Assembly: GCA_050179755.1 (NCBI GenBank)
Contig: JBFXEV010000001.1
Coordinates: 233,994 to 297,993 of the forward strand
Direction of reading: 5' to 3'
Length of the DNA: 64,000 nt
Source: Candidatus Babeliales bacterium
GTDB lineage: Bacteria > Babelota > Babeliae > Babelales > JBFXEV01
Part shown: positions 12,434 through 14,869 of the stretch, one piece after another
Layout of the letters: each line of letters begins with the position of its first letter
Numbering within the stretch: the first letter of the stretch is position 1
Notes under the pieces: model-generated
Told to the model about the DNA's origin: nothing
Seen by the model: the letters and a program-made list of their open reading frames with translations, nothing else
Databases searched by the model: none
Program-made: the position numbers and the translations under genes

Positions 12434-12461
12434 TTGCTCACGCCAGCCAATGTGCTATAAT
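12434..12461 (+). promoter_or_regulatory. Sigma70-type promoter of leader 1
   Basis: TTGCTC-16nt-TATAAT with extended TG; ATG 7 nt downstream. Confidence 0.7.
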
Positions 12462-12467
12462 TAAACT

Positions 12468-12614
12468 ATGAAACATATTATAATTGCATCTCACTCTTCA
12501 TTCTCAGATAGTATTCAGGGCTTTAACAAAACAGCCATTAGCCTATTGTGCCTAAATCTCACTAGTTATTCTTATTGCTCTTATAATTCTGGGGAATTGA
12601 ATATACTTTCATAA
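12468..12614 (+). CDS. Attenuator leader peptide 1 (Tyr cluster), 48 aa
   Basis: MKHIIIASHSSFSDSIQGFNKTAISLLCLNLTSYSYCSYNSGELNILS; its only Tyr codons are at 34, 36, 39. Confidence 0.75.
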   Translation: MKHIIIASHSSFSDSIQGFNKTAISLLCLNLTSYSYCSYNSGELNILS

Positions 12615-12636
12615 CAATAGTTAGATATAAGATAGT

Positions 12637-12671
12637 AAATCCCCGGCATAAAAATCCGGGGATTTTTTTTT
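12637..12671 (+). terminator. Attenuator terminator 1
   Basis: aaatccccgg-cataaaaat-ccggggattt plus T run, just before the RBS of 12683. Confidence 0.9.
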
Positions 12672-12682
12672 AAAGGAATCAC

Positions 12683-13636
12683 ATGAAAAACTTAACAAAA
12701 CTAATAATCGCATTGAGCCTCACCTTAGGTGCAAGCGCATGGCTCATATTAAAACATAAACAACAACATACCACGTTAGGCCAAAAACACACCACTATTG
12801 GTATTTTGCAAACAGCATCACACCCTGCGCTTGATGCAGCGCGCCAAGGATTTATAGAAACACTCAAACAAGCTTTACCTGAAAACATTGAATTCATCGT
12901 GCGTAATGCAGAAGGCTCAATCCCTGCAGCGCACACCATTTCACAAAGTTTTAAAGCACATAATCTAGACGGCATTTTTGCAATCGCAACTCCTGCAGCA
13001 CAGGCAGCAGCTTCACTTATACACGATACACCTATTTTTATTGCAGCAGTAACAGACCCTCAAGCTGCGGGTATTTGTAAAGAAACTGTAGGTGGTTGCA
13101 CCGATATGGTTTCACTTGAAAAAACAATAAACTTACTGCAAAAGCTCGCTCCTTCTGCGCGTAACATTGCCATTCTTGCAAATACTGGTGAAATTAATTC
13201 CCAAGTTCAAGTGAGCACTCTGCAAGAAATACTAAAAACTCGCGGGTTAAATCCACTCATTTTTGGTTTTACTTCAGAAGCAGATGTAGCAACCGCAGTA
13301 ACTTCTGCCGCTCTTAAAGCAGACGCCATTCTCGTGCCAAACGATAATACAATTTCTTCTAGTATTACATTGGTGGCTGCACTTGCATTAAAACATAAAA
13401 AACCTCTTATTGCATGCGATACCATGCTCGTTGCAAAAGGCGTGCTGGCAGCAAACGGCGTTGATTACCATGCAACAGGAGTGCAAGCAGCGCACCAAGC
13501 GCTTGAAGTACTGCGTGGCAGCACAAAAGGAATGACTATTGAGCAGCCGCAACAAGAAATGATCATGATTAATAAAAAAGTTGCTGACACGTTGCAGATT
13601 AACGTGCCAGAAGAGCTAGCCAAATTTGCTATTTGA
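12683..13636 (+). CDS. ABC transporter substrate-binding protein (aromatic amino acid TrpX/ABC_sub_bind type), copy 1
   Basis: IGILQ.ASHPALD..RQGF, NAEG, IATPAAQA, AAVTDP, EINS, P.DN, GVDY..TG. Confidence 0.9.
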   Translation: MKNLTKLIIALSLTLGASAWLILKHKQQHTTLGQKHTTIGILQTASHPALDAARQGFIETLKQALPENIEFIVRNAEGSIPAAHTISQSFKAHNLDGIFAIATPAAQAAASLIHDTPIFIAAVTDPQAAGICKETVGGCTDMVSLEKTINLLQKLAPSARNIAILANTGEINSQVQVSTLQEILKTRGLNPLIFGFTSEADVATAVTSAALKADAILVPNDNTISSSITLVAALALKHKKPLIACDTMLVAKGVLAANGVDYHATGVQAAHQALEVLRGSTKGMTIEQPQQEMIMINKKVADTLQINVPEELAKFAI

Positions 13637-13654
13637 AAACTTTTGTGCTAAGCT
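13626..13654 (+). promoter_or_regulatory. Sigma70-type promoter of leader 2
   Basis: TTGCTA-17nt-TAAGCT with extended TG; ATG 7 nt downstream. Confidence 0.6.
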
Positions 13655-13660
13655 ACTTCT

Positions 13661-13813
13661 ATGAACCAAACTAAAACTCTACCTCACAACTCATTACCAA
13701 ATACTGTGAATAATGCCCTTACAACGGCACATAGCACTCTTTTTGCTCAAATCTATACCTTTGCGTTTATTTACTTTAGTAAGCCGGGGCTTTTGAGCAT
13801 GCTTTTCTATTAA
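13661..13813 (+). CDS. Attenuator leader peptide 2 (Phe/Tyr cluster), 50 aa
   Basis: MNQTKTLPHNSLPNTVNNALTTAHSTLFAQIYTFAFIYFSKPGLLSMLFY; Phe at 28, 34, 36, 39 and Tyr at 32, 38. Confidence 0.75.
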   Translation: MNQTKTLPHNSLPNTVNNALTTAHSTLFAQIYTFAFIYFSKPGLLSMLFY

Positions 13814-13834
13814 AATATAAGAAATAAAAGCACC

Positions 13835-13868
13835 AAATCCCCGGCATAAACACCCGGGGATTTTTTTT
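13835..13868 (+). terminator. Attenuator terminator 2
   Basis: aaatccccgg-cataaacac-ccggggattt plus T run; stem identical to terminator 1. Confidence 0.9.
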
Positions 13869-13906
13869 GCCCAAAATTTACTTTTTTTATTTTTAAGGAA
13901 CTTATT

Positions 13907-14869
13907 ATGAACAGCATAACAAAACTCAGTATCGCAACAATTTTAACACTTATTGCAGGCGCAGTAGTACTCACTAGGTATCAACAACCTGCTGCCACAA
14001 ACATGCTCACCATTGGTATTTTACAAACTGCCTCGCATCCTGCGCTAGACGCCACACGCCAAGGATTCACTGACACCTTAGAAAAAGAACTGCATGGCAA
14101 CATACAGTTCATTATACGCAATGCAGAAGGCTCAGTTCCTGCAGCACATACGCTTGCACGAAGCCTTAAAGCGCACAATATCGATGGCATCTATGCAATC
14201 GCAACACAAGCTGCCCAAGCAATTGCCAACATGGAACAAGAAAAGCCTATTTTCATTGCAGCAGTTACCGATCCTCAAGCTGCGGGCATTTGCAACCAGA
14301 ATGTGTGTGGCTGCACAGATAAAATATCCATTGAAGCTACTATCAATCTCTTGCAAGAACTAGTGCCGCATGCGCAACGAGTAGCAATCATTGCAAACAG
14401 CGGAGAAGTTAATTCCCAAGTGCAAGTTAATCACATGCAAGAGCTATTAAAAAGCCATGGCTTAACGCCTATTGTATTCGGTTTAACGTCAGAAGCTGAT
14501 GTTGCACCCGCAACAACAAGCGCAAGCCTGAAAGCTGATGTGCTCTTGGTGCCCAATGATAATATTATAGGCTCAAGCATTCAACTTGTTGCAGCAATTG
14601 CTTTGAAACATAATAAAGCCGTGATTGCATGTGCAAATACGTTTGTGGAGCAAGGAGCATTGGCAGCACGTGGTGTTGATTATTATAAAACTGGTGCACA
14701 AGCTGCTCACCAAGCACTTAAAGTGCTGGTGAACGGTGTATCACCTCGAGAGATCTCACTGGCAGATCCAGATGAAGGTATCGTCACTATTAATACAAAA
14801 ATAGCTGATGCATTAAGAATAATTATTCCCGACGTATTACTAAAAAACAGCGTATTTGTTAAAGGATAA
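13907..14869 (+). CDS. ABC transporter substrate-binding protein, copy 2
   Basis: Close paralog of 12683..13636 with the same motifs. Confidence 0.9.
   Translation: MNSITKLSIATILTLIAGAVVLTRYQQPAATNMLTIGILQTASHPALDATRQGFTDTLEKELHGNIQFIIRNAEGSVPAAHTLARSLKAHNIDGIYAIATQAAQAIANMEQEKPIFIAAVTDPQAAGICNQNVCGCTDKISIEATINLLQELVPHAQRVAIIANSGEVNSQVQVNHMQELLKSHGLTPIVFGLTSEADVAPATTSASLKADVLLVPNDNIIGSSIQLVAAIALKHNKAVIACANTFVEQGALAARGVDYYKTGAQAAHQALKVLVNGVSPREISLADPDEGIVTINTKIADALRIIIPDVLLKNSVFVKG

Follow-up and report, generated by a model that had tools for sequence, protein, structure and literature searches.

Leader-peptide attenuators such as trpL, pheL-pheA, pheM-pheST and hisL of Escherichia coli are the classical case in which the position of a ribosome decides whether transcription continues. 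They consist of a short open reading frame (ORF) in which several codons of the amino acid to be sensed follow one another, an intrinsic terminator and a mutually exclusive antiterminator. In this paper we describe a pair of elements of the same composition in a 64,000-nucleotide (nt) stretch of DNA from a Candidatus Babeliales bacterium (contig JBFXEV010000001.1, positions 233,994 to 297,993; the whole stretch is called the window here), where they precede the genes of a predicted aromatic amino-acid importer. Our results make it probable that they are two ribosome-mediated leader-peptide transcription attenuators which act in series and stem from a tandem duplication. They would differ from the classical attenuators in that importer receptor genes are controlled and not biosynthesis or synthetase genes, and in that the host belongs to the Dependentiae, which are uncultured or amoeba-dependent bacteria. 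Other differences are the missing Shine-Dalgarno sequence, the lack of an established anti-antiterminator, the greater length of the leaders (48-50 codons) and the presence of two of them in series in one operon.

Other described systems share parts of this design. The AroR leader peptide of Corynebacterium glutamicum was reportedly described by Neshat et al. in 2014. Like the leaders described here it lies upstream of a controlled gene, aroF, has mixed Phe/Tyr sensor codons (Phe-Tyr-Phe) and reads the aromatic supply by stalling, but according to a review (PMC11802643) it governs 3-deoxy-D-arabino-heptulosonate 7-phosphate (DAHP) synthase and answers Phe and not Tyr. It belongs to another phylum and has no sequence relation to our leaders. 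The trpXYZ importer of Streptococcus suis belongs to the same PF04392 family (3LFT-like), and its terminator/antiterminator is induced by scarcity of the cognate aromatic amino acid, so that the sensor codon tells the substrate; there, however, a T-box reads uncharged transfer RNA (tRNA) directly without a translated leader and the specificity is for Trp (PMC9382623). A sensor ORF at the 5' end of a leaderless transcript, with stalling on a codon run, is also known from the polycysteine ORFs of mycobacteria, although these sense Cys and unmask a ribosome-binding site, and the leaderless start is experimental there and predicted here (10.1101/834739). Very few ABC (ATP-binding cassette) transporters were known to be under attenuation according to a 2010 survey (PMC2965389). 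The mechanism we propose is textbook attenuation and contains no new principle, and leaderless sensor ORFs and T-box control of the same transporter family are already known. We found no description of this leader device on Dependentiae importers in the literature searched.

Two leader units in front of one importer

The source genome (G000) is a single contig of 1.53 Mb, 96% complete by marker genes, and its relatives in protein searches are labelled Dependentiae or Babeliales. The + strand of the window carries, between positions 12434 and 16383, promoter-like boxes, a leader ORF, a hairpin with a T-run and a PF04392 gene, then the whole series once more, and finally a permease and an ATPase gene. 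The features are as follows (aa, amino acids).

12434-12461, + strand: putative promoter 1, with a -35-like TTTGCT (12434-12439), a 16-nt spacer and an extended -10 box TGcTATAAT (12453-12461), 6 nt before the leader ATG
12468-12614, + strand: leader ORF 1, 48 codons, a single ATG, no Shine-Dalgarno sequence; Y34, Y36 and Y39 are TAT codons at 12567, 12573 and 12582
12589-12646, + strand: predicted antiterminator 1, CUGGGGA (12589-12595) with UCCCCGG (12640-12646); nested helices enclose the leader stop codon (12612-12614)
12637-12671, + strand: predicted intrinsic terminator 1, aaatccccgg / cataaaaat / ccggggattt and a T-run, -14.2 to -15.0 kcal/mol
12683-13636, + strand: gene of binding protein 1, 317 aa, PF04392, with Asp246 and Tyr262 at the positions of Glu-263 and Tyr-279 of the tyrosine binder CD0873
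13625-13654, + strand: putative promoter 2, with a -35-like TTTGCT (13625-13630) within the last codons of gene 1 and an 18-nt spacer counted to the -10 hexamer
13646-13654, + strand: extended -10 box of promoter 2, TGcTAAGCT, 6 nt before the leader ATG
13661-13813, + strand: leader ORF 2, 50 codons, no Shine-Dalgarno sequence; F28, Y32, F34, F36, Y38 and F39 at 13742-13777
13783-13845, + strand: predicted antiterminator 2, GCCGGGG (13783-13789) with CCCCGGC (13839-13845); nested helices enclose the stop codon (13811-13813)
13835-13868, + strand: predicted intrinsic terminator 2, aaatccccgg / cataaacac / ccggggattt and 8 T, -14.7 kcal/mol
13907-14869, + strand: gene of binding protein 2, 320 aa, PF04392, with Ala243 and Tyr259 at the Glu-263 and Tyr-279 positions
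14872-15696, + strand: single permease gene, PF02653
15706-16383, + strand: single ATPase gene, PF00005

A preliminary description of this DNA had reported the leader ORFs, their peptides and shared residues, the identical terminator stems and the G-rich arms, and all of these are present. Leader peptide 1 has 48 aa and ends in ...LTSYSYCSYNSGELNILS, leader peptide 2 has 50 aa and ends in ...LFAQIYTFAFIYFSKPGLLSMLFY. By codon index both have M1, H9, S11, T22, A23, S25 and L27, and the Y34, Y36 and Y39 of leader 1 stand against F34, F36 and F39 in leader 2. The cluster of leader 1 is made of Tyr codons only, without Phe or Trp, and that of leader 2 of Phe and Tyr codons without Trp. The peptides are identical at only 7 of 48 positions. 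The title of the preliminary description spoke of translational attenuators, which is loose wording for a device that would end transcription.

Both terminators have identical G+C-rich stems of 10 bp, aaatccccgg-(9 nt)-ccggggattt, followed by 8-9 T, and fall between -14.2 and -15.0 kcal/mol. With the T-run they are identical at 32 of 35 positions between the copies, compared with 53-55% identity for the ORFs and 63% for the genes. Since the terminator is kept far better than the ORFs and genes, selection appears to have been uneven across the duplicated unit. A consensus scan for promoters and terminators listed none of those in the window, the terminators because their 9-nt loops exceed its 8-nt limit and the promoters because of weak -35 boxes.

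The binding proteins match Pfam family PF04392 with 186.8 bits (E 7e-55, protein 1) and 176 bits (E 1e-51, protein 2), far above the cut-off of 25.9. Their best solved relative is 6hni, the structure of CD0873 (2e-51 and 2e-47 for proteins 1 and 2), and 3lkv and 3lft are also matched (1e-33 to 1e-36). Gene order and the Pfam matches support the suggestion that one permease and one ATPase are common to both binding proteins. The genome would depend on such an importer: chorismate synthase (PF01264), prephenate dehydratase (PF00800) and prephenate dehydrogenase (PF02153) were not found in the 96%-complete assembly, and are present in 14 of 14 control genomes. This supports dependence on imported Tyr and Phe, and with it the auxotrophy that the preliminary description had considered probable.

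Related genomes give the attenuator reading its main evidence. We scanned 79 loci in public genomes, five of which repeat loci collected earlier and are counted once; 450 nt upstream were examined in 77 of them, the other two having too little DNA. Fifty loci are Dependentiae-like; these are L025-L078 after removal of three records from Aerococcaceae and of one locus whose upstream DNA was too short. The full layout was taken as an ATG ORF holding 5 or more aromatic codons within 10, a stop codon 10-80 nt before a T-run hairpin, and a hairpin at most 120 nt from the gene. This order of ORF, Phe/Tyr cluster, G-run, stop, CCCCGG terminator and gene is found in 19 of the 50 Dependentiae-like PF04392 loci. 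Weaker forms occur in 11 more, namely 3 with fewer aromatic codons (below 5 in 10) and 8 with an aromatic ORF but no terminator by the finder used. None of the 27 scanned loci labelled Firmicutes or Actinobacteria has the full layout, and of 58 other gene-proximal terminators in the source genome, which served as a control, only 2 adjoin an ORF of this aromatic density (5 or more codons in 10). Leader ORFs of 19-62 codons lie at the same place in 21 related loci. Counted over the clusters of 23 leaders, 85 TAY triplets are in the reading frame and 3 and 18 in the other two frames, a bias that is partly built in as the frame was picked by aromatic content.

The nearest comparison is a genome of the same genus (G001), where a 52-codon ORF before the first binding-protein gene ends in ...SAIYFYFYFICGDRSMPT and is followed by a CGGGG run and by aaaaccccgg/ccggggtttt with a T-run. 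The leader holds ...SAIYFYFYFICGDRS... on the 5' side of this terminator. Most leaders are mixed, with Tyr and Phe codons. Tyr-only leaders of the form S-YYY-GNY-stop occur at four loci (L037, L046, L074 and L075), and Phe-only leaders at L032 and L044, both from Chlamydiae-labelled metagenome-assembled genomes (MAGs). Taken together with the reading frame of the TAY triplets and with the folds described below, the comparison supports the idea of attenuation by ribosome stalling that the preliminary description had put forward.

Promoter-like sequences recur as well. The layout [CT]TTGCTAtttg ... TGnTAnnn precedes leader ATGs in relatives too; a [CT]TTGCTAtttg -35 region is common to 10 of the 23 leaders (upstream sequences judged by eye), and a strict TAnnnT hexamer lies 3-10 nt 5' of the in-frame leader ATG in 10 of 23, with near-matches by eye in 5 more. 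No Shine-Dalgarno-like motif was seen in 19 of the 23 leaders, whereas a clear one stands 5' of the leader in some relatives (G016, aaaggaaaaacc, and L043). We infer that the leader transcripts are leaderless and start at or a few bases from the AUG.

Aromatic leader ORFs before a PF04392 importer gene were also seen outside the Dependentiae, at L032, L044 and L047 (Chlamydiae-labelled) and at L076 and L077 (Silvanigrella- and Proteobacteria-labelled). One Chlamydiae-labelled MAG carries two loci with different leaders, Phe-only at L044 and mixed at L047.

A proposed terminator/antiterminator switch

We propose the following mechanism. Each promoter would start a transcript at or a few bases from the leader AUG. 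The G-run just past the aromatic cluster would bind the C-run in the 5' arm of the terminator and form a long hairpin that encloses the stop codon, which is the antiterminator. When charged tRNA-Tyr and tRNA-Phe are ample, the ribosome would pass the G-run, reach the stop codon and melt or block the antiterminator; the CCCCGG/CCGGGG terminator could then form and RNA polymerase would halt short of the binding-protein gene. In a shortage of charged tRNA the ribosome would stall near the front of the cluster, still 14 nt or more away from the G-run, leaving the antiterminator to form and transcription to read through. Leader 1 with its Tyr codons would gate binding protein 1, and leader 2 with Phe and Tyr codons would gate binding protein 2 together with the sole permease and ATPase.

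The G-rich arms (ctgggga at 12589-12595, gccgggg at 13783-13789) are complementary to the terminator 5' strand, and the arm:terminator duplex has -12.5 kcal/mol in leader 1 and -12.2 kcal/mol in leader 2 (p 0.017 and 0.013 against 300 dinucleotide shuffles). At p<=0.05, this simple duplex beats its shuffles in 9 of 23 leaders (mean z -1.9). The composite hairpin, which we folded from the aromatic cluster through the end of the terminator 5' arm and compared with 200 dinucleotide shuffles, does so in 18 of the 23 leaders, with a mean z of -2.6. It uses the G-run:C-run pairing as its base, with the leader stop codon held in the inner stems, and has -14.7 kcal/mol (p 0.025) in leader 1 and -17.1 kcal/mol (p 0.045) in leader 2; in the same-genus genome it has -28.4 kcal/mol, compared with -18.2 for that locus's own terminator. 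The G-run begins 3-13 nt past the last aromatic codon in most Dependentiae leaders.

The preliminary description had proposed folding the leaders with and without the region covered by a ribosome, and the outcome is divided. We constrained the folds with a 30-nt ribosome mask and omitted the terminator 3' arm. In leader 1 an A site at Y34 or Y36 then leaves the antiterminator free to form, as does one at F28 to F36 in leader 2, which is expected of early stalls. Once the A site is moved to Y39 or F39, the mask lies over the G-run and the antiterminator is absent. It also wins without any ribosome once the 3' arm is omitted. In full-length minimum-energy folds, the G-run is paired with upstream bases.

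Several observations weigh against the attenuator reading. The aromatic clusters of the window alone are not beyond chance, the source genome being rich in A+T: its intergenic regions hold 885 small ATG ORFs, of which 403 reach the value of leader 1 (at least 3 aromatic codons in 10), 52 reach that of leader 2 (at least 5 in 10) and 27 have at least 3 Tyr codons in 6 as leader 1 does, so that significance rests on conservation. No leader was found at 20 of the 50 Dependentiae-like loci within the 400-450 nt examined; 3 of these are second tandem genes, 8 have a same-strand ORF filling the region, in 2 the hairpin lies further away, some 300 nt upstream, and the other 7 show nothing. Neither leader ORF has a Shine-Dalgarno sequence, while both binding-protein genes have AAGGA, and leader translation would therefore depend on a leaderless start. 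The Rfam model Phe_leader (RF01859) stays below its threshold of 55 bits, with 27.0 bits at 13748-13869 and 25.3 bits at 12551-12671, and aligns mainly over the terminator. As to the folds, a ribosome stalled on the last codons (Y39; Y38/F39) would sit over the G-run and so promote termination, the antiterminator does not need a stalled ribosome to win, and a classical anti-antiterminator ('region 1', 1:2 pairing) was not established in the folds of either leader. Finally, the G-run lies 15-20 nt upstream of a ribosome at the stop codon and is physically uncovered by it, so any blocking must act via the inner helices and sterics. Because the antiterminator forms without a ribosome and a stop-codon ribosome covers only its inner stems, the device would switch between two states, and it would be the translating ribosome that prevents antitermination.

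Applied to an alignment of 10 leaders, RNAalifold gave back the terminator together with one small hairpin, formed by the G-run and a GCC just 5' of the stop. The pair table shows changes on both sides at only 2 of 10 terminator pairs, with a summary covariation term of 0.13. The three Chlamydiae-labelled leaders have one additional hairpin in relay. Another small hairpin lies in the first half of the leader ORFs (12518-12544 and 13714-13729 in the window, alignment columns ~52-76), as GGC...GCC in leader 1, UGCC...GGCA in leader 2 and GGCC...GGCU in the same-genus genome; it coincides with a conserved stretch G-L/F-N-x-A of the leader peptides. RNAalifold did not call it in the 10-leader alignment; it could be a transcription pause hairpin.

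A hairpin of the type CCCC[AG]G...C[CT]GGGG occurs in the 1.53-Mb genome only in the two leaders and at one orphan site. This orphan element (C1:1439886-1440100, outside the window) has a 47-codon ORF MQIAITIQ...ISAGELLP ending GCTGGGGAA, followed by a CCCCAGC/GCTGGGG terminator with a T-run. The element is free of aromatic codons, and no long ORF follows it on its strand. It is only 40-43% identical in DNA to the two leaders, and may be a remnant or a small RNA.

Duplication and substrate specificity

The upstream regions of the two genes align, the binding proteins are 59% identical and are sisters in a 56-row tree from a quick maximum-likelihood search (SH-aLRT, the approximate likelihood-ratio branch support, 99), and the -35 box of promoter 2 lies in the last codons of gene 1. 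This supports a tandem duplication of the whole promoter-leader-terminator-gene unit. The same-genus genome has two tandem binding-protein genes behind one mixed leader, and a separate leader for each gene is thus specific to the source lineage. Its second binding-protein gene (L003:2494-3360) ends after 288 aa, with a spacer of ~280 nt to the permease, and may be truncated or frameshifted.

Whether the two units differ in their substrates is the weakest part of the earlier proposal. In the work on CD0873 of Clostridioides difficile, Glu-263 bonds the tyrosine hydroxyl and is replaced by Ala in the Phe binder VC_1101 and the Trp binder SP1069, and Tyr-279 excludes tryptophan and is Gln in the Trp binder (PMC6816091). 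In HMMER alignments, the Glu-263 position is Asp246 in copy 1, Asp being not Glu, and Ala243 in copy 2, which aligns with the Ala of 3lkv. The Tyr-279 position is Tyr in both copies (Tyr262 and Tyr259). These pocket residues fit the leaders, which are Tyr-only for copy 1 and Phe-rich for copy 2, and agree with the lack of Trp codons in either cluster. Given that the attenuators are real, a Tyr-versus-Phe specialisation of the two units is plausible but unproven, and we would give it slightly better than even weight.

The main competing explanation accepts the attenuators and regards the Tyr/Phe difference as drift: both leaders would sense a general aromatic shortage, the proteins would bind the same ligands, and leader 1 might be a decaying copy. 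We find this somewhat improbable, yet it has to be taken seriously. Leader 1 has just 3 sensor codons, the third of which is too near the G-run, although its terminator and G-run are intact. Asp at the Glu-263 position is the common state of the clade, which speaks against re-tuning; it occurs with mixed leaders (L043 with 6 Tyr:5 Phe codons, L051 with 5:4) and with the Phe-only Chlamydiae-labelled ones (L032 0:5, L044 0:7). However, Tyr codons outnumber Phe codons in all 15 of the 15 Asp-type Dependentiae loci with a leader, and the Tyr-only type recurs at the four other loci named above. The mixed Phe-Tyr-Phe leader AroR of C. glutamicum answers Phe only, according to a review (PMC11802643). 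Against drift, the residues that the two copies have at position 246 diverge in the way that CD0873 and VC_1101 would predict. We also asked whether the pocket residue predicts the codons of the leader across loci, but 3 non-Asp loci with a leader, beside the Chlamydiae-labelled counter-examples, are too few for a conclusion.

The preliminary description held that sensor codons changed together with ligand specificity, and Asp246 and Ala243 are as this predicts, whereas the frequency of Asp and its company with mixed and Phe-only leaders are not. Its reading of leader 2 as 'Phe or Phe/Tyr' stands for the pair of codons and not for Phe alone. The leaders do not align without gaps at the DNA level: 3 gap columns fall within the ORF, and the codon-for-codon homology of Y34/F34 and the others is uncertain for this reason. 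The comparison with relatives would fit a history in which copy 1 changed its leader and kept its pocket, and copy 2 changed its pocket and kept a mixed leader. Leader 2 may retain Tyr codons because terminator 2 precedes the only permease and ATPase and must answer Tyr shortage.

A fuller version of this history is tentative, and taken as a whole we consider it rather unlikely. After the tandem duplication sensor and receptor would have diverged together, copy 1 retaining the acidic residue of the pocket and becoming a Tyr channel with the loss of its Phe codons, and copy 2 combining an Ala pocket with a Phe/Tyr OR gate, since it would control the sole permease and ATPase too. The codons would serve as an address label for the substrate, and each unit would be a leaderless two-state attenuator with the ribosome as its anti-antiterminator.

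Position 246 (copy 1 numbering) is variable in the wider family. Among L025-L103 it is D, H, A, F, Y, G, W, S or E with conserved neighbours, and proteins of the His type (IACHNQA) recur at several places in the quick tree.

Remaining alternatives and significance

A terminator/antiterminator switch could also sense without translation, as a riboswitch or through a TRAP-like protein (tryptophan RNA-binding attenuation protein) on the UAU/UUU repeats, the ORF being incidental. The absence of a Shine-Dalgarno sequence before the leader ORFs and the ribosome-free folds, which give the antiterminator by default, would suit such a switch, and triplet-spaced UAU/UUU repeats would suit a repeat-binding protein too. 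We nevertheless think it very unlikely, as several features recur while the nucleotides drift: an ATG at a constant 6-8 nt from the -10 box, an open frame 19-62 codons long, and a stop codon that falls within the antiterminator or immediately 5' of it. Some relatives such as G016 do have a clear Shine-Dalgarno sequence before the leader. Apart from the terminator and one small hairpin, RNAalifold gave no conserved structure that resembles an aptamer, and neither the window leaders nor the related loci match an Rfam family at threshold; a gathering-threshold scan of 20 related loci (9 from Aerococcaceae-type records) found no T-box or leader family, its sole match being an unrelated small RNA in L098.

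That the hairpins are ordinary terminators or insulators ending the upstream 418-aa gene and gene 1, with the small ORFs as chance frames in AT-rich spacers, is hardly credible, although both T-runs stand 3' of a same-strand gene, the aromatic enrichment of the window is within background and the A-run/T-run stems are symmetrical and could work in both directions: terminator 1 lies 205 nt beyond the upstream stop codon with a conserved promoter between them, the upstream gene of the same-genus genome is on the opposite strand and leader and terminator are there nonetheless, a constitutive terminator 2 would cut off the sole permease and ATPase, and the order and spacing of ORF, cluster, G-run and stop are kept across many genera.

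The search for further codon-run leaders in the source genome covered 60 gene-proximal terminators, none of which was convincing. An ORF with SYSYEYSG at 289082 was dismissed as a leader: it overlaps a peptide in another frame, which may be a C-terminal zinc motif of the SecA-like type. The small ORF with the highest aromatic content in the genome (MKFSLDSTVSC[RK]IFFFNFYSYYCGWK...) has two near-identical copies, at 781381-781524 (- strand) and 1263123-1263266 (+ strand), and these were rejected as attenuators because they sit in a G+C-rich repeat without a terminator and transporter context. Five ORFs that neighbour the importer in the window (11175-12431, 16502-17881 and 17897-18508, and on the - strand 9891-10460 and 10478-11065; 189-459 aa) have no Pfam match at E 0.001.

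To our knowledge, regulation in Dependentiae is almost unknown. The leaders would give these bacteria a concrete and widely conserved regulatory device, which acts on uptake and not on synthesis, and this fits an organism in which none of the three marker enzymes of aromatic amino-acid synthesis was found. The tandem pair may be a compact natural case of sensor and receptor divergence after duplication. Leader codons would further offer a prediction of the receptor substrate from sequence only, which here would be Tyr, Phe or both, and not Trp. If this is true, leader codons may become a readable specificity label for PF04392 importers across uncultured Dependentiae and some genomes labelled Chlamydiae or Bdellovibrionota.

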